DNA of 11,682 bases, from the NCBI RefSeq assembly GCF_020969955.1, contig NZ_JAHDSX010000060.1, forward strand, positions 1 to 11,682, written 5' to 3'. The position numbers were made by a program, and so were the translations under genes. The notes under the pieces were generated by a model, which did not search any database, was not told the origin of the DNA, and saw nothing but the letters and a program-made list of their open reading frames with translations. How positions within the stretch are numbered: the stretch's first letter is position 1; every line of letters begins with the position of its first letter. The DNA comes from Allobaculum fili (GTDB lineage: Bacteria > Bacillota_I > Bacilli_A > Erysipelotrichales > Erysipelotrichaceae). Below are positions 126 through 11,274 of this stretch, piece by piece.

Positions 126-329
126 TTATAAACTACAAAAAACATGCGATCCGCTGGTATAACCGAGATGCGAATCAAGTTCTCCCTGGAGCATCTGTTC
201 AAGGACAGGGCCAAATATTTCCCTGATGAGGTCTGAGGCTTCTTTAAACGTCTTAGGTTTGTATTCCTTAACGATGGTTGAAGCAATCTGTTCCTGAAGG
301 GTTGGTGCAGCTTTAGCTTTACGTGGCAT
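126..329 (-). pseudogene. IS256-family (Mutator-type) transposase, decayed 5' fragment
   Basis: The ORF starts MPRKAKAAPTLQEQIA...FGPVLEQMLQGELDSHLGY. This is the N-terminal pattern (E-x-E-L/M-x-x-HLGY) I recognise from IS256-family transposases. An AAGGAG SD lies upstream of the ATG at 329. The frame closes after 67 codons and no frame in 1-125 continues into a DDE core, so only a broken N-terminus remains. Confidence 0.6.
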
Positions 330-535: not shown

Positions 536-3500
536 TTACAAATATTGAGACAAATTGTTCGCCATTAGTTCTGCTTGAGAAAGAACCAGATCAATCGCAC
601 CAGGAATTTCTTCAGGTGGATAATGGTACTTCCTCAAAAGACGTCTAATATTTTTGCGGATTCCGGCTCTGGCACTTTCTTTGCGTTGCCAGTCAATCGA
701 GACACTATGCCGAAGAATATCCGTGAGCTCTTTTGCAATCTGTACCAGTTGGTCGTTTTCATAAAAGTCTTTTACCGCTTCCGGCTTGCAGAGAGCATCA
801 TAGAAAGCGACTTCTTCAATAGATAAACCCAGATCATTTCCTGCCTGACTGGCATTCCTGATATCTTGGGCCATCCGCATCAATTCCTCAATCACTTCTT
901 CATTCGTTATCAACCCATTCACATAGGAATTTAACGCTTTCTTCAAGCGATCAGAAAACTCTTCTGATTTAACAACATTAGTTCTTTTGAAGCCACGGAT
1001 TTCATCATTCAGTAATCTTTTCAGAAGTTCCAGGGACAGATTTTTTCCCTCCATATTTCTGATTTCCTCTAAGAAGTCAGTATCAAAAAGTGAAAATTCT
1101 TCCCCACGATCTGAGAAAAGGCTTACCACACCCTCACTCTTGATCGTCTGTTTCAGAAGTTCATTAATTTGAGCGTTCACTTCTTTCAAAGACAGCCTGC
1201 CCGAAGCACCGGAAGTCGAAATCCGATTTAAAAGCGTTTTTGCAGCGATAAAATAACCCGCTTCTCTTTGTTGTTTATCATCAACCAAACTGCTGCACAG
1301 AGAGAGAGACTGCTTCAAACGCTGGGCTTCCTTGATAAATTTGAACTGTGCTCTTTCTTTTTCTGGAATATTCATTTCTTGATGGGTTAAATCCATGATG
1401 TGATTCACTCCACCAGTGATTGCTCTTCCTTTTTCCAAATCCGTACCTTGCAAAAAGGACTTATAGTCGTACCCTTTGAATAAGTCTCTACAGCTGAATA
1501 GAGCCTCTTCAAATATAGGAAGTGCCTTTTTCTTAATATCTGGGTCACCAAAATTCTTCTGGTCGCTCTTGGTATAGTCCTTCATTGCTTGCTTTAATGC
1601 GGAGGCAATACCAATATAATCGACTACAAGTCCGCCCTCTTTATCCCCGAAGACACGATTCACTCTGGCAATCGCCTGCATCAGGTTATGGCCGCTCATT
1701 GGTTTAAAAACATACATAGTAGCCAAGGATGGAACATCAAAACCCGTGAGCCACATATCACGAACAATCGCGATTTTGAAATCAGACTCATTATCTTTGA
1801 ACTCTTTTGCCAAATCCGCTCGATACTTATCCGTACCCGTATATTCGTGCCACTCTTCTGGATCTTTATTACTTCCAGTCATTACAATCTTGACCTTTTT
1901 ATCCCAGGTAGGTTCAAGCTCCAGCATCTTATGGTAAAGCTTCACAGCAATTTCTCTGGAGTAAGCAACGATCAGCGCTTTCCCAGTCAATAAATTTTCA
2001 CGATTTTCTTTGTAGTGATCAATAATATCTCTTGCTAGAGAGTCAATCGTTTCATCACTGCCAAGAATAGCCTCCATATTGCTAAGTTCTTTTTTGCTTT
2101 TATCAATTGTGATCTCATCTGCCTCAGCAGCCAACATATCGTACGTGTTGTCGATTCTTCGAAGAGTCTCTTCATCGAGTTTAAGCTTCATAACCCGGCT
2201 TTCATAGTAAACCGGTCTGGTCGCACCATCTTCAACAGCTTGAGTCATGTCGTAAATATCAATATAGTCTCCGAACACAGCTCTCGTGTCTTTATCTTCA
2301 GAATCAATTGGCGTTCCAGTGAAGCCGATATAGGTCGCATTTGGAAGACTATCGCGAACTTTTTTGGCTGCCCCAATCACCGTTTTTGCAAGAACATTCC
2401 CGTATTGATCCTTGGTCGTTACAAATTTTTCAGTAAGACCGTATTGACTACGATGGGCCTCATCCGCCATAACAATAATATTTTTCCGTTTAGATAGAGC
2501 TCCCCATTCTTCTTCGAATTTGGCCATAGTGGTAAAGATGATACCGCCACTTTGTCTATTATTTAAAAGCTCATATAGATTTTCTCTAGAGGTGGCCTGA
2601 ACAGGCGTTTGACGCAGGAACTTATGACAATCCGAGAAGGTCTTAAATAGCTGATCGTCAAGATCACGGCGATCAGTAAGGACAACAAAAGTTGGATCAT
2701 CCATTTGCTGGTCTAATAAATGAGTATAGAAAACCATAGACAGCGACTTACCGCTGCCTTGAGTATGCCAAAATACTCCCCCTCGTCCGTCTGTTTTTGA
2801 AGCCAGCATCGTGGAATGAACGGCTTTCTCAACGGCAAAATACTGATGATATCCAGCCAGAGTCTTGATTAGCCGACCACCAGGCGTCATGAATAAAATG
2901 AAGTTTTTCAGAATATTCAGGAAACGATCCTTCTGGAAAATGCCCGTAAAAAAGGTTTCAAAGTTTGCAAACTTCGTGTTTTCATAATTTCCATCTGTCG
3001 TTTTCCAGTCCATATAACGGTCTTCATTGCTCGAGATTGTACCAGCTCGTGAAACCAACATATCGGACATCACGCAAATTTGATTATAGTTAAATAAGCA
3101 GGGGATATCCAGCATATAATTGCGCAGCTGAACATATCCCTCAGAAGCACCTGTTTCATCCCGTGATGGCGATTTGAGCTCGATCACAACTAATGGCATT
3201 CCGTTTACAAACAGGACAAGATCTGGCCTTTTCTTTTTAAATTCTTCTACAGTGAACTGATTCACGATGAGAAAAGAGTTGTTCTGTACATCGTTATAAT
3301 CGATCAAATGAACCAGATCATTTTTCATTTCACCATTTCGATAGTAGGAGACTCTCAGCCCATTCTGCAGATAGTCTGTAAATTGTTCATTCCTGGTTTC
3401 AAGAGAACCGACCTCCAAATTCCGAATTTTGACTACTGCTTCGTCAAAGGCAGCAGCTGGAAGGTCAGGATTACACATTCGTAGTGAATCTCTTAATACC

Positions 3501-3625
3501 TCGAGAAGAAGGGGATCCCTATAATCCCGATCCATATCTGGACCATATTGATATTCATAGCCTAATTCTGACTCGAACAACTGTATCAGAGTCTTTTCAT
3601 AGGAATCTTCAGTGTATTGATTCAT
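536..3625 (-). CDS. hsdR: Type I restriction enzyme, R (restriction/translocase) subunit
   Basis: 1029-aa ORF with an AAAGGAGGG SD upstream of the ATG. It has an N-terminal PD-(D/E)xK-like nuclease motif (RPDLVLFVNGMPLVVIELK). SF2 helicase motifs are present: motif I HTQGSGKSLSM, DEAH box IIVMADEAHRSQ and motif III GFTGTP. Length and the C-terminal helical domain are typical of HsdR. Confidence 0.95.
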   Translation of the reverse strand: MNQYTEDSYEKTLIQLFESELGYEYQYGPDMDRDYRDPLLLEVLRDSLRMCNPDLPAAAFDEAVVKIRNLEVGSLETRNEQFTDYLQNGLRVSYYRNGEMKNDLVHLIDYNDVQNNSFLIVNQFTVEEFKKKRPDLVLFVNGMPLVVIELKSPSRDETGASEGYVQLRNYMLDIPCLFNYNQICVMSDMLVSRAGTISSNEDRYMDWKTTDGNYENTKFANFETFFTGIFQKDRFLNILKNFILFMTPGGRLIKTLAGYHQYFAVEKAVHSTMLASKTDGRGGVFWHTQGSGKSLSMVFYTHLLDQQMDDPTFVVLTDRRDLDDQLFKTFSDCHKFLRQTPVQATSRENLYELLNNRQSGGIIFTTMAKFEEEWGALSKRKNIIVMADEAHRSQYGLTEKFVTTKDQYGNVLAKTVIGAAKKVRDSLPNATYIGFTGTPIDSEDKDTRAVFGDYIDIYDMTQAVEDGATRPVYYESRVMKLKLDEETLRRIDNTYDMLAAEADEITIDKSKKELSNMEAILGSDETIDSLARDIIDHYKENRENLLTGKALIVAYSREIAVKLYHKMLELEPTWDKKVKIVMTGSNKDPEEWHEYTGTDKYRADLAKEFKDNESDFKIAIVRDMWLTGFDVPSLATMYVFKPMSGHNLMQAIARVNRVFGDKEGGLVVDYIGIASALKQAMKDYTKSDQKNFGDPDIKKKALPIFEEALFSCRDLFKGYDYKSFLQGTDLEKGRAITGGVNHIMDLTHQEMNIPEKERAQFKFIKEAQRLKQSLSLCSSLVDDKQQREAGYFIAAKTLLNRISTSGASGRLSLKEVNAQINELLKQTIKSEGVVSLFSDRGEEFSLFDTDFLEEIRNMEGKNLSLELLKRLLNDEIRGFKRTNVVKSEEFSDRLKKALNSYVNGLITNEEVIEELMRMAQDIRNASQAGNDLGLSIEEVAFYDALCKPEAVKDFYENDQLVQIAKELTDILRHSVSIDWQRKESARAGIRKNIRRLLRKYHYPPEEIPGAIDLVLSQAELMANNLSQYL

Positions 3626-3658: not shown

Positions 3659-3671
3659 AAACAAGAATTTA
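3659..3671 (+). repeat. Core repeat copy D (AAACAAGAATTTA), intergenic between hsdS and hsdR
   Basis: A 13/14 match to the core found inside the hsdS central regions. It is in plus orientation, 5 nt beyond the hsdS stop, and is non-coding, so codon conservation cannot explain it. It is an inverted partner of copy A. Confidence 0.8.
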
Positions 3672-3676
3672 TTGGC

Positions 3677-4834
3677 TTAGAGCTCAATATTAGATATGTC
3701 AAGTTCACCGGAGAATAGTTTTGGAAGCAAGATATCTCTTAAGTTGGCAAGCTTTAAATTTTCCGCCTGATTTGCCCAAATGGTTTCAAAAAGAGGAGAA
3801 ACAACATCTGTAAATGAGTTCATTTCTTCTGCTGTTGGCACGACTATTTCTGTTTTCTGAAAATCAGGAACTGTAAGCTGTTGTTGCGTAGTCCCAGTTC
3901 CGAGAATTTTGGAGTTCCTTAACCACAGATAAAGATATTTCGCAGATACTATTTCTTTTTTCGGGACTAAGGTGATAAGCCGGACTATCGGGGTATATGG
4001 TCGATGGCGCAAGCAAACATAACCAATAGTTCCTCTCGCGGAGACCGTAATGCTTTCATCCTCAATTTTGTACCCACTTGAAAATCCATAAAGGCCTTCG
4101 TCTCTAATGCCATTAGAATAAATTGGATATGGATATTCTGTGGTTTGAACGGCAGATACAGTTTTTGGTTTATCTCCCCCAGCTCCTATTAGGGATACAT
4201 CCGCGAGAGTGGTCTTTTTCCATCCATCTCGTGATGGTCCTGGTGTGAGGAATCGACTTCTGAAAATTTCCTGTATTTGCTGTTCTAAATTCTTGTTTAT
4301 CTGATTATTGAGATCGATTTTCGCTTGCATTCGCTCAATCAAATTTATCTGCTTTTTCTGAAATTCCAAGGAAGGTAAATCAATTTCAATGTTTTTAAAG
4401 TTCTTCAATGGTTGTGCCAAAGCTGGAACACCAGTCTGGTTTTTAAATGCCAAAATTTTCGATTGCCCTTCTCTGGTGTGGAAATAATAAACAAGGTATG
4501 GAACGTATACTTGATCTTCATCAAAAGAGACGCGGAATTGTCTCTGCGAGACTAAGTATTCATTGTATTTAGAGTCTTTCGGGATATAGGCTATCTGCCC
4601 AACAGTTCCGCTAATAGTAACAACAACATCACCTTTTTTGGCGATAGATCGGCTTAATGATCGCGCCTTCTCTTCCGAAACAAATTTCGTTATATTGTCA
4701 GTCACCTTAACTCCCTTGAGATTAGCTCCATCTACGATGGGGAAACCGGATGAAGTGAAGCATTCAACTTTTAAATTCGAACCAAAAGGTCCTGCCGCGA
4801 TATCTTTAATTACCTCGTCTAATTTAATTATCAT
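3677..4834 (-). CDS. hsdS: Type I R-M specificity subunit, full length (TRD1-alpha, central helix, TRD2-alpha)
   Basis: Two TRDs are separated by the central conserved helix (...QKKQINLIERMQAKIDLNNQINKNLEQQIQEIF...). The C-terminal conserved region is RDILLPKLFSGELD. The best start is the ATG at 4834 (MIIKLDEVIKDIAAGPFG), with SD AGGAGGTG 8 nt upstream. That ATG overlaps the recombinase stop as ATGA. The GTG at 4843 given in the ORF track lies inside the SD. Confidence 0.9.
   Translation of the reverse strand: MIIKLDEVIKDIAAGPFGSNLKVECFTSSGFPIVDGANLKGVKVTDNITKFVSEEKARSLSRSIAKKGDVVVTISGTVGQIAYIPKDSKYNEYLVSQRQFRVSFDEDQVYVPYLVYYFHTREGQSKILAFKNQTGVPALAQPLKNFKNIEIDLPSLEFQKKQINLIERMQAKIDLNNQINKNLEQQIQEIFRSRFLTPGPSRDGWKKTTLADVSLIGAGGDKPKTVSAVQTTEYPYPIYSNGIRDEGLYGFSSGYKIEDESITVSARGTIGYVCLRHRPYTPIVRLITLVPKKEIVSAKYLYLWLRNSKILGTGTTQQQLTVPDFQKTEIVVPTAEEMNSFTDVVSPLFETIWANQAENLKLANLRDILLPKLFSGELDISNIEL
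4285..4300 (-). repeat. Core repeat copy A (minus strand ATAAACAAGAATTTAG) inside hsdS-alpha
   Basis: Identical over 16 bp to copy C (6459-6474, same orientation). It is the inverted complement of copy B over 15 bp and of copy D over 13 bp. It encodes I-N-K-N-L at the TRD1/TRD2 junction. Confidence 0.9.
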
Positions 4835-5817
4835 CCAATACACCTCCTATGTGAGCTTTTTACATTACTTTGTTTCACCATCGCATATTGCATGGTTGTA
4901 TCAATCCGTTCATGTCCAAGCAATTTTTGCAATTGCTCAACCGGCATACCTTTATCAATGGCTGTTGTAGCCATAGTCCTTCGAAACTTATGGGGATGGA
5001 CTTTGGTGATTCCGGCACCTTCGCCGATAGTCTTTAGTCGTGACTCTACCCCATTTATCGTCAATCTGGCATATGGCTGCTTTAATCCTACGAACAGCGC
5101 TTCTCCTCCATCTACCCGTTCAGACAAATACTTGGAAAGATGGAGCTTAGTGCGCGCATCAAAGTAGACTGGACGTTCTTTATTACCTTTACCAAATACA
5201 ATGCATTCCCTCTCGGTTAAATCAACGTCATCAATGTTAAGTTTGACAAGCTCACCAACACGCATACCTGTGGAGGCAAGCAAATCAATCATTGCCAAAT
5301 CTCTGCTGTTAGACGTTGAATCTCTCATTTTTTCGAGTTCTTCATCAGAGTAAGTGTCTTTGATCACCTTATCTGTTTTAATTTTGTGAATCCTTCTTGC
5401 TGGACTCTTTAGGATATGGTCCTCTTCTTCGAGCCAAGAAAAAAAGCTTGAGATAATTCTTCGGATATTATCGATAGTTACTTTGCTTGATCCATGTAGC
5501 TTCTGATAATCAGATAAATAAGATCGGAGATCATCAGTCATGATTCCAATAACAGGCTTACTAATCTGATCGAGCATCTTTTGAATAGTTTTTCTATAAT
5601 AATCAATCGACTTCTCAGAGCAGCCTTCGACCTGTTTGGCCGATAAAAACAAATCCAAATACTCTTCATTTTGCTTAGAAGGGTCTTCCTGATGATTTTG
5701 AGAAACATCGAACTGCGAAACTACAGCTCGAATAACAGTCTCAATCGTTTTCAACTCTCCGTAACCAAACAAACCACTCAACGCCTGGACAACACTGTTC
5801 ACTAAGATTTCCTGCAT
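4831..5817 (-). CDS. Tyrosine site-specific recombinase (phage integrase / XerC-XerD-like)
   Basis: The R-K-H-R-H-Y catalytic set is recognisable: STGMRVGEL, GKGNKER, HPHKFRRT, LGHERIDTT and TMQYA. The probable start is the ATG at 5817 (MQEILVNS...), with SD GAGGTG 6 nt upstream. The longer ORF reaching 5871 has no SD. Confidence 0.9.
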   Translation of the reverse strand: MQEILVNSVVQALSGLFGYGELKTIETVIRAVVSQFDVSQNHQEDPSKQNEEYLDLFLSAKQVEGCSEKSIDYYRKTIQKMLDQISKPVIGIMTDDLRSYLSDYQKLHGSSKVTIDNIRRIISSFFSWLEEEDHILKSPARRIHKIKTDKVIKDTYSDEELEKMRDSTSNSRDLAMIDLLASTGMRVGELVKLNIDDVDLTERECIVFGKGNKERPVYFDARTKLHLSKYLSERVDGGEALFVGLKQPYARLTINGVESRLKTIGEGAGITKVHPHKFRRTMATTAIDKGMPVEQLQKLLGHERIDTTMQYAMVKQSNVKSSHRRCIG

Positions 5818-5836: not shown

Positions 5837-6454
5837 GTGAGTATGCAAATATCAGTAGGTGGAGCAAACAAGAATTTAGAGCAGCAGGCGCAGGCTATTT
5901 ACGAAGAACTCTTCATTAAAAAAGCCAACCCGCAGTGGGAAACAGGACTTCTTTCAGATTTGGTAGAGGTTAAATACGGAAAAGATCATAAAAAGCTGGC
6001 TGATGGTGGCTATCCCGTATATGGTTCTGGTGGAATTATGCGTTATGTTGAGCGACCACTCTATTCTGGGGAGTCAGTTTTGATACCTCGTAAGGGTACA
6101 CTCAACAATGTAATGTATGTCAATGGGGCGTTTTGGTCTGTAGATACGATGTTTTACACTAAGATGCAACGCCCTAATGTGGCAAAGTTTGTTTTCCATT
6201 TTATAAAGAGTAAGGATCTTGCTTCGCTGAATGCTGGTTCTGCTGTTCCGAGTATGACAACAAACATTTTGAATGCAATGCAGCTCCGTATCCCATATGA
6301 AAAGACACTCCGAGAGTTTGAAGAACTTGTTTTACCTATGTATAAAGCCATGCAGGAAAACGAAACGCAATCCTCAAGACTGGCCTCAATAAGGGATGCT
6401 CTACTCCCTCGCCTTATGTCCGGCGAGCTGGATGTCTCGGGCATCGACCTCTAA
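5837..6454 (+). CDS. hsdS: Silent hsdS half-gene cassette (central-helix remnant, TRD2-beta, C-terminal conserved region), inverted relative to the operon
   Basis: The translation from the core onward is NKNLEQQAQAIYEELF...TRD...IRDALLPRLMSGELDVSGIDL. This parallels the second half of the 385-aa HsdS. It has no TRD1 and no SD. The nominal GTG start lies in the antisense of the recombinase 5' UTR. Confidence 0.8.
   Translation: MSMQISVGGANKNLEQQAQAIYEELFIKKANPQWETGLLSDLVEVKYGKDHKKLADGGYPVYGSGGIMRYVERPLYSGESVLIPRKGTLNNVMYVNGAFWSVDTMFYTKMQRPNVAKFVFHFIKSKDLASLNAGSAVPSMTTNILNAMQLRIPYEKTLREFEELVLPMYKAMQENETQSSRLASIRDALLPRLMSGELDVSGIDL
5866..5880 (+). repeat. Core repeat copy B (AAACAAGAATTTAGA), 49 bp upstream of the recombinase start codon
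   Basis: A plus-orientation copy at the 5' edge of the silent TRD2-beta cassette. Its codon phase is the same as in copies A and C (AAC AAG AAT TTA G). Confidence 0.9.
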
Positions 6455-6945
6455 GCCGCTAAATTCTTGTTTATGAGAGCATTGTTATCCATTTTCTCAT
6501 CTAGAGAATTCAAGATGCCGGCTATTCTTTTTTGAAGCTGAAGAGGCGGAAGATCAATTTCCTGGTTTTCCATATCTTGCTTTGTTATATGAGCCATCAC
6601 ACTTCCATGTCCGCCAGCTTGCATTCTTCGAACATTGTTTAGAAGCCAGTAATACAAATAGTATTTATCTGCTTTACTGTCATCTACCTGCAGTTTCCAA
6701 ATATGATAGTGATAAATAGATTTTGGTCCGCGATAAATTTTTGGTCCGAATGATGCTGACCAAGCAAACAACAAATCGTCATCCTCACAGTATTTATCTG
6801 ATTCAAGTTCTAAATCTGAATAGAGCATTTCTGAATTGGTAAAAAAATTACCCACTCGAAGAACTTGATATTTTCCTTTCTCTAGTAGTTCGTTTAATTT
6901 ATAGGCACGGCCATTAATCACCCGACAGACATCTTTAAATTTCAT
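6451..6945 (-). CDS. hsdS: Type I R-M specificity subunit, one-TRD (half) form: TRD1-gamma plus central helix only
   Basis: 164 aa counted from the ATG at 6945 (MKFKDVCRVINGRAY...). This start overlaps the hsdM stop by 11 nt. An alternative ATG at 6978 cannot be excluded. The protein ends ...DLPPLQLQKRIAGILNSLDEKMDNNALINKNLAA*, which is exactly at the core repeat where a second TRD would normally follow. Confidence 0.85.
   Translation of the reverse strand: MKFKDVCRVINGRAYKLNELLEKGKYQVLRVGNFFTNSEMLYSDLELESDKYCEDDDLLFAWSASFGPKIYRGPKSIYHYHIWKLQVDDSKADKYYLYYWLLNNVRRMQAGGHGSVMAHITKQDMENQEIDLPPLQLQKRIAGILNSLDEKMDNNALINKNLAA
6459..6474 (-). repeat. Core repeat copy C (minus strand ATAAACAAGAATTTAG) at the 3' end of the hsdM-linked hsdS
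   Basis: A 16-bp direct repeat of copy A and an inverted repeat of copy B. The ORF stops two codons after the core (..NKNL AA TAG). Confidence 0.9.
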
Positions 6946-8452
6946 ACCCAATATTCTCCAGTTGCTTCCTGATTTCATCTTCGAGTTCACGTGATTGTTT
7001 AAACAAATCACCAAGTTCAGAAGTCAGGCGTTTCATTTTTTCGTCGAATGGCTCTCCATCTTCTTTGTCTTCTTCAATTCCTACGTATCTGCCTGGAGTT
7101 AGAATATAGTCCTGTTTTGCGATTTCTTCGGTATCGACTATTGCCCAGTGCCCTGGATTATTCTCAAGGTTACCTTCTTCGTAGGATTGATAAAGTTCAC
7201 CTATCTTTTTAACATCTTCATCGGAAAATTCGCGCAGTTTCCTGGAAACCATGGTTCCCATATCTTTAGCGTCAATAAAAAGCGTCTTTCCTTTTTGCTT
7301 TTTATTCATTGAAAGAAACCAGAGTGAAACAGGGATACCCGTTGAATAGAAGAGCTTTTCAGGCAAAGCTACTATGCAATCAACCAAGTCTGCTTCAATG
7401 ATTTTTTTACGGATTTCGCCCTCACCCTTTGTCTGAGTAGAAAGCGCACCATTTGCCAGGACCATACCGATCTTTCCGTTTCGGTTCAGGTGAGAAATCA
7501 TATGCTCCATCCAGGCAAAGTTTGCGTTTGATTCAGGAGGTGTTCCATAAGCCCATCTCGGGTCATCTTCGAGCGATTTGTGCCACCAGCTTTTATCGTT
7601 GAAAGGAGGATTCGCCATCACAAAATCCATCTTTTCATGAGGGTGAAGATCTTCCAAAAAGGTGTCTGCGTTGTGGGGGCCGAGGTTTGCATCAATTCCT
7701 CTGATCGCCAGGTTCATCTGAGCAAGCTTCCAGGTAGTCGGATTAGATTCCTGCCCAAACACGGAAATATCATTCAGGTGACCTCCATGATTCTCAATGA
7801 ATTTTGCAGACTGCACAAACATTCCGCCGCTACCGCAGCAAGGATCGTAAACACGGCCATGGTAAGGTTTTAAAACCTCAACAAGCGTGCGCACTACAGA
7901 AGAAGGCGTATAGAATTCGCCTGCGTTTTTGCCTTCCTGGGAAGCAAATTTCTGGAGACAATATTCATAGGTTCTTCCGAGAATATCTTTTTCGTTTCCG
8001 TGTTCGTGCATTTTGATATTGGTGAACAAATCGACAACTTCACCTAATCTTCGCTGGTCCATTTCAGGGCGGGCATAGTTTTTTGGTAGAACGCCTTTCA
8101 GTTTTGGGTTCTCTTTCTCGATTTGTTCCATCGCAGAGTCGATGGCTGTTCCAACAGAGTTTGTATGCGCGGAGTTCTTAATCACATCCCATCGAGCACC
8201 TTCCGGAACGAAAAATATGTTTTCAGAAATATACTCATCTTTATCGTCAGGATCAGCATATGGGTCTTTTAAAAGTTCAGCACGTTTTGCTTCGAAAGAA
8301 TCAGAGATATACTTCAAAAAGATTAAGCCGAGAATAACGTGTTTATATTCAGAAGCATCCATGCTACCGCGGAGAACATCGGCTGCACTCCACAGTTCAG
8401 CTTCAAATCCCACATCTGCTTTATTAGATACTCTCTTCTTTGTATTTGCCAT
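6935..8452 (-). CDS. hsdM: Type I R-M N6-adenine DNA methyltransferase subunit
   Basis: 505 aa with SD AGAAGGAG. The HsdM N-terminal motif is LWSAADVLRGSMDASEYKHVILGLIFLKYIS. Motif X is GEFYTP, motif I is VYDPCCGSGGMF and motif IV is MANPPFN. Confidence 0.95.
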   Translation of the reverse strand: MANTKKRVSNKADVGFEAELWSAADVLRGSMDASEYKHVILGLIFLKYISDSFEAKRAELLKDPYADPDDKDEYISENIFFVPEGARWDVIKNSAHTNSVGTAIDSAMEQIEKENPKLKGVLPKNYARPEMDQRRLGEVVDLFTNIKMHEHGNEKDILGRTYEYCLQKFASQEGKNAGEFYTPSSVVRTLVEVLKPYHGRVYDPCCGSGGMFVQSAKFIENHGGHLNDISVFGQESNPTTWKLAQMNLAIRGIDANLGPHNADTFLEDLHPHEKMDFVMANPPFNDKSWWHKSLEDDPRWAYGTPPESNANFAWMEHMISHLNRNGKIGMVLANGALSTQTKGEGEIRKKIIEADLVDCIVALPEKLFYSTGIPVSLWFLSMNKKQKGKTLFIDAKDMGTMVSRKLREFSDEDVKKIGELYQSYEEGNLENNPGHWAIVDTEEIAKQDYILTPGRYVGIEEDKEDGEPFDEKMKRLTSELGDLFKQSRELEDEIRKQLENIGYEI

Positions 8453-8590: not shown

Positions 8591-8674
8591 ATAAAGATTG
8601 GTTTTCCTGTCCCCTCAATATTGGAAATGGACCAATTTGTTTAGCGATACCATCCTGATAAATCTTTTTTTCGC

Positions 8675-8719
8675 AAAAAGGGGCATAAACCAAATGGTCC
8701 ATTCCATCTTTTATGCCCC
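8675..8719 (-). terminator. Intrinsic terminator T1 (minus strand)
   Basis: A 10-bp stem pairs GGGGCATAAA (8680-8689) with TTTATGCCCC (8710-8719). Extra ATGG/CCAT pairing occurs in the 20-nt loop. On the minus strand TTTTT follows (plus-strand A-run at 8675-8679). No T-run follows on the plus strand. Confidence 0.65.
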
Positions 8720-9095: not shown

Positions 9096-9647
9096 TCAAA
9101 TTTCGTAAAGGTGTCTGAATTTGATTGTTCGTTTCAGAGCCTTGTGAAGACTGTCTTTAGTAATCTTAAGCTCATTATTCACAACAGCTTTAACTAAATT
9201 TGGATATTCTTTTGGGTTCGCCTCAATCATTGAAATAGGACTTGAAGAACCATCTACGCCTTTTCCTTTATGATGAATCGGTCCAATAATGATATCCGAA
9301 TACTCATAATTAAGTTTTAGTTTGCCGTAATTAAATCTCTTGATTTCTTCATTAGTCACGAATTCAATCTGTCTGGGGTCAATTCCAACTTGAGAGGCAA
9401 TTTGATCAATTGCTTTTTTATCGAGGTGCGTAAATCCAATGATCATGACCTTGGCTGTATATCGATTGAAGATCCAGTCGTTTTGGGTTGTTTCTGTATC
9501 CTCATAAAAGCCAATCTTTTTTAGATAAGACTCAAGCCCTCCTGTTCGATTCTCCAGGAGAAGACGATCAGATACGTAGGAACAGACTTCATATGCCAGA
9601 TTGTCAAGGCCCTGTTTATCTAACGCCAAGAGACTCACCACCCTCAT
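9096..9647 (-). CDS. Hypothetical protein, downstream partner of the M-S fusion-like gene
   Basis: The open frame runs 9096-9671. Candidate starts are TTG 9671, ATG 9647 and TTG 9629; the last has a GAGGGTG SD-like run upstream. All of them overlap the end of the upstream gene (stop at 9616). The C-terminal half (KVMIIGF...YSDIIIGPIHHKGKG...LKITKDSLHKAL) has an alternating strand/helix pattern that reminds me of small Rossmann-like domains such as DUF2325. This is unverified. Confidence 0.6.
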   Translation of the reverse strand: MRVVSLLALDKQGLDNLAYEVCSYVSDRLLLENRTGGLESYLKKIGFYEDTETTQNDWIFNRYTAKVMIIGFTHLDKKAIDQIASQVGIDPRQIEFVTNEEIKRFNYGKLKLNYEYSDIIIGPIHHKGKGVDGSSSPISMIEANPKEYPNLVKAVVNNELKITKDSLHKALKRTIKFRHLYEI

Positions 9648-11274
9648 CAAAAAGAGAATCTCGTTTTGCAATAATTCTCTCTACCCGCTGTCTAGCTTCT
9701 TTCAGCCGGTCTTGAAGGATCTTATATCTGGCTCCCATGACTTTCTGCTGCTCCAGATCAAGTTTGGGAATTTCCATATTTTTAAGATCCGGGGTTGTAA
9801 TATTTTTTATAACAGAGCCTTTACTGATGGATTCCAATCTGTTTTTACCGTCGCTCGAAGTGAGGTAAGCCATCAAATACCGAGGATCAATTTTTTGAAG
9901 ATCGGGGCGGATAACAAGAAAGTTGCTGCTAGGAATCACATGCATTTCTCCAATACCTTCCATAAAAGCAATCTGTGGTGCGACCCCTTTGGAAAAGATC
10001 AGAATATCACCATCCATTAAATAAATATCATTTTGAGCTGAAGAATCTTCGCCGATTGTCTCCAATGCGGAGATATCAATCTGCTGATCACGCAGTGCCT
10101 TGGCTGTAAGAAGATAACAATCGCCTTCAGCATTCTCATTCATCTTAGCCAGATTTTTTCCTCTGAATACTTCAGCAACATCCTTAACACAGTATGTATT
10201 CTCAAAGTCTCTCAGACTAGTCTGAGTGTAGTAGCGCTGCGGATATAAAAGGGAGCTGTCAGCTTCTGCCTCTGCAACACTTAAATCGTTAAAGAGGGTC
10301 TCGTGATTACGAATCGTTGACTCTAATCCTTCCAGAAGCTCCTTCTGTTTCTGCAAACTCTTTTTTCGGCCAAGAGAAAAGATACTATTAAGATCACAGA
10401 TTTGAATCTTCGAATTCTCTTTTTTACTCAGAATAAGAAGCACAGGAGAAATAGAAGTATTAGGGAGGATTCCAGCAGGAAGCTGAATGACTTTTTCAAT
10501 AACGCTGCTCTTGATCAATGCATTGACGAACTTCTTTTCGGAGTTAGAGAAGAGGACAGAAGGCGTAGTGACCAAAGCGGCAATTCCATCTTTATCCAAT
10601 GAAATAAGAGCATCATTAACCAACTCAGCCTCGTACGACCGAACGTTGATTTCTTCACCATTAAAAGCGAGGATTGGTGTGCGCTCTACTCGTCTCATTC
10701 CAAATGGAAGTTCTCCAAGAACAAGATCAAATCGGCCTTTTTCTGTTTTATGATTCAAGCGATCGATTCTCACTTCGATGGGCAGGTTAAACACCCTGCT
10801 AACAATTTGCTGAAGCATGCAATGTCTGGGGTTCAGGTCTTCTGAAACAATTCTGGCAGTCGGGAAATCCTGCGCCGCTTTTGCAGTAATATTTCCACGA
10901 CACGAATTCATATTGAGGATTCGCAGCGGTTTTACATCCCCCTCAAAAAGTCGAATCAGATCAGGAAGAATCTTCAGACCGTTTCCGGGTTCCGTAGAAT
11001 CAGTAATCGAAAGAGCATTAATAATGGTACTCTTGATCCCTTCATAATCCAGATCCCGTAAAGCCTCTGTCCATAAAGAGACAGCCTCCTGATTAGCCCC
11101 GTCTACATTGATGTCGCTAATGTCTTTGTTTAATACATGGGCTGCTGCTACAGCCAGATTTAAAATTTCTTCACTTGATTTGACAGCGCTCAGCTCTTTC
11201 ATTGGAGATTCAACTTTTAAAATCTCCAGATCACTAGCAATTCTTTCTTTTGATGTCTTTACTTCTGTTGGCAA
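9616..11274 (-). CDS. HsdM-like methyltransferase-fold domain fused to a single HsdS-type TRD; catalytic and SAM motifs are non-canonical
   Basis: 552 aa with a TTG start and SD AGGAGG 7 nt upstream. Residues 97-290 align by eye with the window's HsdM: GLKILPDLIRLFEGDVKPLRILNMNSCRGN against GEFYTPSSVVRTLVEVLKPYHGRVYDPCCGSGG. SEDLNPRHCMLQQ aligns with QESNPTTWKLAQM, FDLVLGELPFG with DFVMANPPFN, and VIQLPAGILPNTSISPVLLILSKK is the usual post-motif-VIII strand. Residues 362-540 look like one HsdS TRD plus a conserved helix (VKDVAEVFRGKN...NFLVIRP...YLMAYLTS...IPKLDLEQQKVMGARYKILQDRL). Confidence 0.85.
   Translation of the reverse strand: MPTEVKTSKERIASDLEILKVESPMKELSAVKSSEEILNLAVAAAHVLNKDISDINVDGANQEAVSLWTEALRDLDYEGIKSTIINALSITDSTEPGNGLKILPDLIRLFEGDVKPLRILNMNSCRGNITAKAAQDFPTARIVSEDLNPRHCMLQQIVSRVFNLPIEVRIDRLNHKTEKGRFDLVLGELPFGMRRVERTPILAFNGEEINVRSYEAELVNDALISLDKDGIAALVTTPSVLFSNSEKKFVNALIKSSVIEKVIQLPAGILPNTSISPVLLILSKKENSKIQICDLNSIFSLGRKKSLQKQKELLEGLESTIRNHETLFNDLSVAEAEADSSLLYPQRYYTQTSLRDFENTYCVKDVAEVFRGKNLAKMNENAEGDCYLLTAKALRDQQIDISALETIGEDSSAQNDIYLMDGDILIFSKGVAPQIAFMEGIGEMHVIPSSNFLVIRPDLQKIDPRYLMAYLTSSDGKNRLESISKGSVIKNITTPDLKNMEIPKLDLEQQKVMGARYKILQDRLKEARQRVERIIAKRDSLFDEGGESLGVR

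Follow-up and report, generated by a model that had tools for sequence, protein, structure and literature searches.

The stretch of DNA analysed here (the window) is a complete contig of 11,682 base pairs (bp) from Allobaculum fili (Erysipelotrichaceae), a mucin degrader of the human gut, and it is occupied by a single Type I restriction-modification locus whose genes all lie on the minus strand. Read along that strand, the order is hsdM, a first hsdS (gamma), a cassette, an Xer-like recombinase gene, a second hsdS (alpha), a second cassette and hsdR (Table 1). The Greek letters designate target recognition domains (TRDs): gamma and alpha are N-terminal (TRD1), while beta and delta, carried by the cassettes, are C-terminal (TRD2). 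Most likely the locus is a four-site shufflon of the SsuCC20p type known from Streptococcus suis, composed of two TRD1 arms and two TRD2 cassettes and seen in one of its phases. What is new is the host and a natural isomer of the locus; the kind of system, the rule of one complete hsdS at a time and the ever-present half gene were already visible in S. suis.

Table 1. Coordinates of the genes, cassettes and recombination cores in the window (nt, nucleotides; aa, amino acids)
Feature	Position	Strand	Description
hsdM	6935-8452	-	505 aa; Pfam HsdM_N and N6_Mtase
Truncated hsdS (gamma)	6451-6945	-	164 aa; gamma TRD1 arm and first 28 residues of the central helix; WP_230268383.1
Beta TRD2 cassette	5880-6458	+	579 bp; last third of central helix, TRD2, C-terminal helix and stop; inverted relative to the gamma gene
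Xer-like tyrosine recombinase	4831-5817	-	328 aa; Pfam Phage_integrase and SAM-like domain; NCBIfam NF040815 above cut-off
Complete hsdS (alpha TRD1, delta TRD2)	3677-4834	-	385 aa from ATG 4834; WP_230268380.1
Delta TRD2 cassette	3672-4285	-	fused (ON) orientation; replaced by epsilon in contigs L001-L003
hsdR	536-3625	-	1029 aa; Pfam HSDR_N, SWI2_SNF2 and T1RH-like_C; NCBIfam hsdR
Core A	4286-4298	-	13-mer; within the alpha-delta gene, in its central conserved region
Core B	5866-5879	+	13-mer at 5866-5878; inverted copy, 49 nt upstream of the recombinase ATG; non-coding arm TAGGTGGAGC resembles that of core D
Core C	6459-6472	-	14 nt, 13-mer at 6460-6472; central conserved region of the gamma gene; encodes N-K-N-L; inversion joint in L001
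Core D	3659-3671	+	13-mer; inverted copy just past the alpha-delta stop, between hsdS and hsdR

The hsdM-linked hsdS is a one-TRD form, as a first-pass annotation made from the letters alone had stated: its product has a single Methylase_S domain (Pfam; residues 2-160, E-value 2e-29), and its C-terminus, ..ALINKNL-AA-TAG, stops two codons past the recombination core. Its start codon (ATG, 6945-6943) and the hsdM stop (6937-6935) overlap, and GGAG lies 10 nt upstream of the ATG. The complete hsdS noticed downstream on the same strand is the 385-aa alpha-delta gene, which begins in an ATGA overlap with the TGA stop of the recombinase gene and is preceded by an AGGAGG ribosome-binding site. Since these signals are present, and since the equivalent S. 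suis gene, located after xerD, is transcribed and directs methylation of the genome (PMC10790761), alpha-delta is probably expressed. It is the one complete specificity gene of this phase and most likely sets the motif for methylation and restriction. Promoter and terminator scans of the window gave counts at or below the level of shuffled sequence, and exact look-up of the window HsdM among public proteins gave no match.

The locus is organized around the 13-mer AAACAAGAATTTA, which occurs exactly four times, against 0.01 copies expected by chance and with none of 200 shuffles reaching four; cores B and C have 14 nt in common (AAACAAGAATTTAG). Oriented alike, all four sites read arm, core, cassette end. 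The arms of sites A and C are coding (..D-x-N-N-x-I, central conserved region) and those of B and D have the non-coding sequence TAGSTGGWGMA in common, while the core is followed at A and B by a cassette head, GARCAGCA (E-Q-Q..), and at C and D by a cassette tail, GGCTTAGAG, which is the reverse complement of the cassette's own stop. The cores encode N-K-N-L at two-thirds along the central helix. As in SsuCC20p, there are two identical sets of inverted repeats, each flanking one C-terminal TRD cassette, with orientations + - + -, and the genes hsdM, hsdS, tyrosine recombinase, hsdS and hsdR follow one another on one strand.

Translation of the plus strand from position 5866 gives NKNL-EQQAQAIYEELF...SGELDVSGIDL-stop, with the shared core in the same phase, which confirms the earlier proposal that the cassette next to the truncated gene holds its missing half on the opposite strand, in phase from core B. 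The cassette stop acts in both directions (6445-6459 and 3672-3684): the opposite strand of CTCTAAGCC is GGCTTAGAG, which places a TAG or TAA in frame with the core, so that the truncated gene terminates two codons beyond NxNL. The framing of that proposal, a single gene switched ON and OFF, was nevertheless too narrow, since there are four cores and two cassettes; the fourth core, D, had been overlooked. The position of core D, just past the alpha-delta stop, shows that both hsdS genes are built on one cassette design, fused in the downstream gene and unfused in the hsdM-linked one.

In-silico inversion of the segment 5880-6458 creates an uninterrupted in-frame open reading frame (ORF) of 353 aa, so that the predicted fusion is sound in its frame and slightly shorter than the 'about 360 aa' first proposed. 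This gamma-beta fusion exists in nature: it is the public protein P0001, at 100% identity and 100% coverage. It is encoded by L001 (a contig of the Logan assembly of run ERR13955999), whose sequence on both sides agrees with the window at 99.8% identity, with window positions 5866-6472 inverted at 100% identity and the aligned blocks overlapping by exactly the 14-nt cores. This independent assembly shows gamma-beta uninterrupted, and its alpha gene stops after NKNL-LDFNVT because the cassette at that position (epsilon, not delta) lies inverted. Between L001 and the contigs L002 and L003, epsilon is found in both orientations between identical flanks, and both cassettes are flipped in L001 relative to the other two. 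More generally, the gamma TRD1 arm, identical up to NKNL, joins two different heads in public assemblies, those of P0001 and of the 368-aa P0130, and at least four different short tails, with products of 164, 169, 175 and 203 aa. Since the same arm is joined to different heads and tails, the core is a real recombination joint.

Given that the window is the whole of a short contig from a draft assembly, the half gene might be thought a pseudogene beside a dead remnant, or the contig misjoined across a repeat. However, the same arrangement was assembled independently in several samples (L002, L003 and L006), the joints are exact and in frame in both orientations, and all parts are intact ORFs within an architecture conserved in about 40 species. 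Decay and artefact are effectively refuted by these observations, and the two 'restriction endonuclease subunit S' fragments, rather than pseudogenes or separate genes, represent the phase in which the switch currently stands.

The public record also reveals the variety of the cassettes. The public collection index lists a protein identical to the recombinase in 30 blocks, from which 23 contigs were read. Ten contigs with the identical recombinase (L001-L010) contain five cassette types (beta, delta, epsilon, zeta and eta), and P0130 adds a sixth (theta). Both epsilon and zeta are found in either orientation between identical flanks; zeta occupies position 1 in L004 and position 2 elsewhere, which is the sole evidence of cassette exchange between positions. 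Near-identical loci of the same species thus have at least six TRD2 cassettes between identical flanks, though two per locus, and cassettes have therefore been replaced between strains, beyond shuffling within a genome. Several predicted swaps (gamma-delta, alpha-beta, gamma-epsilon, gamma-zeta, gamma-eta, alpha-eta and alpha-zeta, the last expected from L007) had no exact match among known proteins, a weak negative because one residue difference defeats exact look-up. Scans of JGI metagenome contigs for junctions of TRD1 arm, core and head, and of recombinase leader and core, returned 0 matches each. One same-species metagenome contig (L005:2431-3922) has a second recombinase of 329 aa after cassette 2, with 69% identity to the first, and beyond it a third TRD1 arm ending in the NKNL core; this is a tandem extension of the module, with hsdR not directly next to it.

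How widely this arrangement is conserved was surveyed in the 80 best relatives of the recombinase (58-62% identity) in GTDB species genomes (L011-L090). Four identical cores in the order + - [recombinase] + - are present at 39 of the 80 loci, among them L016, L019, L044 and L062; the core differs by species but invariably fits AAYNNNNNTTTA, with N-x-N-L as its translation. Most hosts belong to the Lachnospiraceae, Oscillospiraceae, Erysipelotrichaceae, Negativicutes and Peptostreptococcaceae, and streptococci and a spirochaete metagenome-assembled genome are also among them. Exactly one fusion of arm and head is found in 35 of the 39 loci, the complete gene being the hsdM-linked one in 17 and the recombinase-linked one in 18, with the other gene truncated in each case. 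The remainder comprise one locus with both genes truncated (L055), one with a flipped orphan cassette that keeps one complete gene (L024) and two with degenerate cassettes; none has two complete genes. The window follows the same rule, with its 385-aa alpha-delta gene complete and its 164-aa gamma gene truncated. Two complete genes occur together in none of the 39 four-site loci from other species, nor in any of 11 loci of the same species, the window included.

These counts bear on the simplest reading of the locus, in which the hsdM-linked gene switches between one and two TRDs through B x C inversion alone, independently of the downstream one. Cores B and C are indeed inverted repeats that flank only the 579-bp cassette. 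However, independent flipping of the two cassettes predicts that half of the loci would have zero or two complete genes, while the survey gives 35 with one, one with none and 0 with two, i.e. 35 of 36 with one (one-sided binomial probability ~5e-10 by our own arithmetic). In addition, both cassettes are flipped in L001 relative to L002 and L003, and long reads and polymerase chain reaction (PCR) in S. suis never revealed two complete or only truncated genes (PMC10790761). A one-cassette inverton is thus quite improbable. By the same token, the lone B x C flip pictured at first is not an expected state, since it would result in two complete hsdS genes, which are absent from the survey and from the S. 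suis data.

Two points count against the four-site shufflon as drawn here. First, both hsdS genes are truncated in L004 and L009, same-species metagenome contigs assembled with MEGAHIT; either these are real single-cassette flips, unlike anything in S. suis and as a one-cassette inverton would need, or they are chimeras of two phases. Second, switching within one culture of A. fili is something we infer from differences between assemblies of near-identical strains.

In the mechanism that we favour, the recombinase would exchange partners at the four cores, each of which joins one of the arms (TRD1-gamma, TRD1-alpha or one of two non-coding arms) to the head or the tail of a cassette. Where a TRD1 arm meets a head, the result is a complete HsdS, and where it meets a tail, the arm stops two codons later. 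The window shows one phase, with alpha-delta complete and gamma truncated, and L001 the opposite one, with gamma-beta complete and alpha truncated. Recombination across a single cassette (B x C or A x D) would change the number of complete genes, while the larger inversions A x B and C x D would keep it at one, as would the paired double exchanges (CB)(AD), (CA)(BD) and (CD)(AB). The three double exchanges alone give exactly the four published alleles with the recombinase never inverted, and the scheme therefore fits the 'coordinated double recombination' proposed for S. suis (PMC10790761). Recombinase dependence, expression of both hsdS positions and the resulting switch of specificity are features that we infer by analogy with that system. 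Another rule, in which only like sites recombine (head with head, tail with tail), was considered and rejected because gamma would then stay locked off, yet L001 and P0130 show gamma complete. In L033, L046 and L073 (and probably in L024 and L057) the segment with the recombinase and TRD1-alpha is inverted relative to hsdM and/or hsdR; this is what one A x B or C x D inversion would produce, so that single large inversions occur or become fixed in some lineages.

A further question is whether the 164-aa gamma half is itself a subunit. The first-pass annotation suggested that the OFF state might be an active enzyme of palindromic specificity, the half homodimerizing and binding HsdM and HsdR, so that alpha-delta and gamma-gamma specificities would compete for one pool of HsdM and HsdR. 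The precedents that it invoked are real: EcoR124I HsdS(delta-50) and EcoDXXI delta-C, like the natural NgoAV subunit, are homodimers that act on palindromes (PMC3874165). Like them, the gamma half consists of an N-terminal TRD and central helix encoded next to hsdM, and it has an intact TRD1 domain, a ribosome-binding site and translational coupling to hsdM. The place of the cut differs: the homodimeric proteins are truncated in or just before the C-terminal TRD, while the gamma half ends at two-thirds of the helix, and the two helices of gamma-beta are dissimilar.

These differences were assessed on an AlphaFold2 model of gamma-beta (mean predicted local distance difference test, pLDDT, 89.6; predicted template modelling score, pTM, 0.82), in which TRD1 is folded and the two dimerization helices are D1 (residues 135-176) and D2 (303-343). 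The gamma half ends at residue 162 plus two alanines, and so keeps 28 of the 42 D1 residues and lacks the last 14 of this dimerization helix; in the native antiparallel register a homodimer would have an overlap of ~19 residues left. Alignment with the S subunit of M. jannaschii (1YF2) puts the core at the same point of the helix. D1 and D2 have 5 identities in 42 positions, with an alignment z of ~1 against shuffles, whereas the validated halves are all Type IC, where D1 and D2 are alike (PMC3874165) and where D1 should be whole, because the truncations remove C-terminal TRD sequence only. Moreover, wild-type S. suis 861160 always has a truncated hsdS, whose TRD is transcribed, and motifMaker found only two motifs in it, both bipartite and non-palindromic and both lost in the hsdS deletion (PMC10790761). 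The idea of a palindromic OFF-state enzyme thus found no support, an active gamma homodimer is unlikely, and the half is probably an inactive, at best weakly active, by-product.

Several considerations pull the other way. In Lactococcus, S subunits truncated ahead of TRD2 methylate palindromic sites and increase resistance to phage (PMC12418389). The S. suis half was never tested on its own, because the locked mutants lacked the silent TRDs, and inactivity is here argued from a structural model and a negative result in another species. The clean stop two codons past the core is moreover conserved, at 71 of 98 tail junctions in the family, via GYGGCTTAR, and the 5-nt spacer GCCRC of the tail junction is conserved across species. 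This stop could reflect selection for a defined half product, although the conserved tail might just as well belong to the recombination site. The wider hypothesis, that the truncated HsdS of every phase is functional, either as a palindrome-targeting homodimer or as an HsdM-binding competitor that tunes the complete subunit, is given a small chance. If it were true, the rule of one complete gene plus a half and the two-codon stop would be selected features, and the epigenetic information of each phase would exceed that of the four alleles counted to date.

The cassette might also act from its present strand. The plus-strand ORF 5837-6454 (205 aa) is uninterrupted, has GTG and ATG starts and is called as the gene of a 203-aa S protein on related contigs; its product would reassemble non-covalently with the gamma half into a gamma-beta specificity, much as co-expressed N- and C-terminal halves of EcoDXXI restore wild-type activity (PMC3874165). 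However, neither GTG 5837 nor ATG 5843 is preceded by a Shine-Dalgarno sequence, the first 10 codons lie antisense to the recombinase leader, in the non-coding arm, and a promoter scan upstream on that strand found no promoter-like site. In the model, the split also falls inside the central helix and not between domains. Expression and reassembly of this half are therefore very improbable.

Other features surround the locus. Upstream of hsdM, positions 9616-11274 (minus strand) encode a 552-aa protein in which an N6-adenine methyltransferase domain (residues 176-309) is fused to a single S-type TRD (360-526), and a 191-aa ORF without family match (9096-9671, minus strand) overlaps its end. The pair, also found in L002, resembles an independent single-chain methyltransferase equipped with a one-TRD reader of its own. 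Between it and hsdM, the intergenic region contains an 18-nt inverted repeat (8626-8703; 89% complementary, 42-nt loop) that adjoins a terminator-like hairpin at 8776-8760. At the other edge of the contig, a 67-aa ORF (126-329, minus strand) ending ..LQGELDSHLGY.. has no Pfam or NCBIfam match and presumably resembles the N-terminus of IS256/mutator-type transposases; a truncated insertion sequence may explain why the contig ends there.

Among known systems the closest is SsuCC20p of S. suis, which comprises hsdM, four TRDs, xerD and hsdR along with two hypothetical genes, and gives four alleles (two TRD1 by two TRD2) by xerD-dependent switching (PMC5198162, PMC10790761). The recombinase of A. 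fili is 60% identical over residues 1-328 to that of S. suis 10581, retrieved in the GTDB genome scan as L062, a locus that carries the exact published SsuCC20p inverted repeat TAAATCATCATTTA. Both systems have the gene order hsdM, hsdS, xerD-like recombinase, hsdS, hsdR and four TRDs, with both C-terminal TRD cassettes flanked by the same pair of ~14-nt inverted repeats, of which one lies within the central conserved helix, in frame, and the second shortly after the stop. At any time, both systems have a complete hsdS alongside a truncated one. The cores are also of like form, TAAA-N6-TTTA in A. fili and TAAATCATCATTTA in S. suis. In S. suis, assemblies together with long reads and PCR always showed a single complete hsdS and never two complete genes, only truncated ones or an inverted xerD (PMC10790761). 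The differences lie in the host, the core sequence and the TRDs; in addition, the A. fili contigs have at least six cassette types and include two with both genes truncated, neither of which is seen in S. suis. The S. suis study found the system in streptococci only, by near-identity searches (PMC10790761). The present survey indicates that this design is not confined to streptococci and is common in gut and rumen Bacillota and in a few other groups, and that the S. suis rule of exactly one complete hsdS holds across the surveyed family. It also makes more general the question of how one tyrosine recombinase achieves apparently coordinated double exchanges at four identical sites. As a speculation, a phase-variable methylome of A. 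fili could matter for its interaction with the host.

Two systems of Streptococcus pneumoniae are more distant. In SpnD39III, the ivr or cod locus (Manso 2014, PMC4190663; Li 2016), a tyrosine recombinase (CreX/PsrA) also lies within a Type I locus, and inversions at repeats internal to hsdS reshuffle TRDs and change the methylome. There, however, only the hsdM-linked hsdS is expressed, the opposite strand carries silent partial copies, and single inversions at three different repeat sets (15, 85 and 333 bp) generate six alleles, whereas in A. fili the two repeat sets are identical, both hsdS positions are expressible and every phase includes a truncated gene. In SpnIV, the tvr locus, a locus-encoded recombinase likewise shuffles TRD cassettes at short repeats, but these are direct repeats and the system has circular intermediates, a toxin-antitoxin and attenuator control (Kwun et al. 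2018, PMC6265443); the four cores of A. fili form two inverted pairs. A tvr-like route of excision and reintegration could nonetheless account for TRDs that change places in the A. fili locus, A x C excising a circle that B x D would reinsert.

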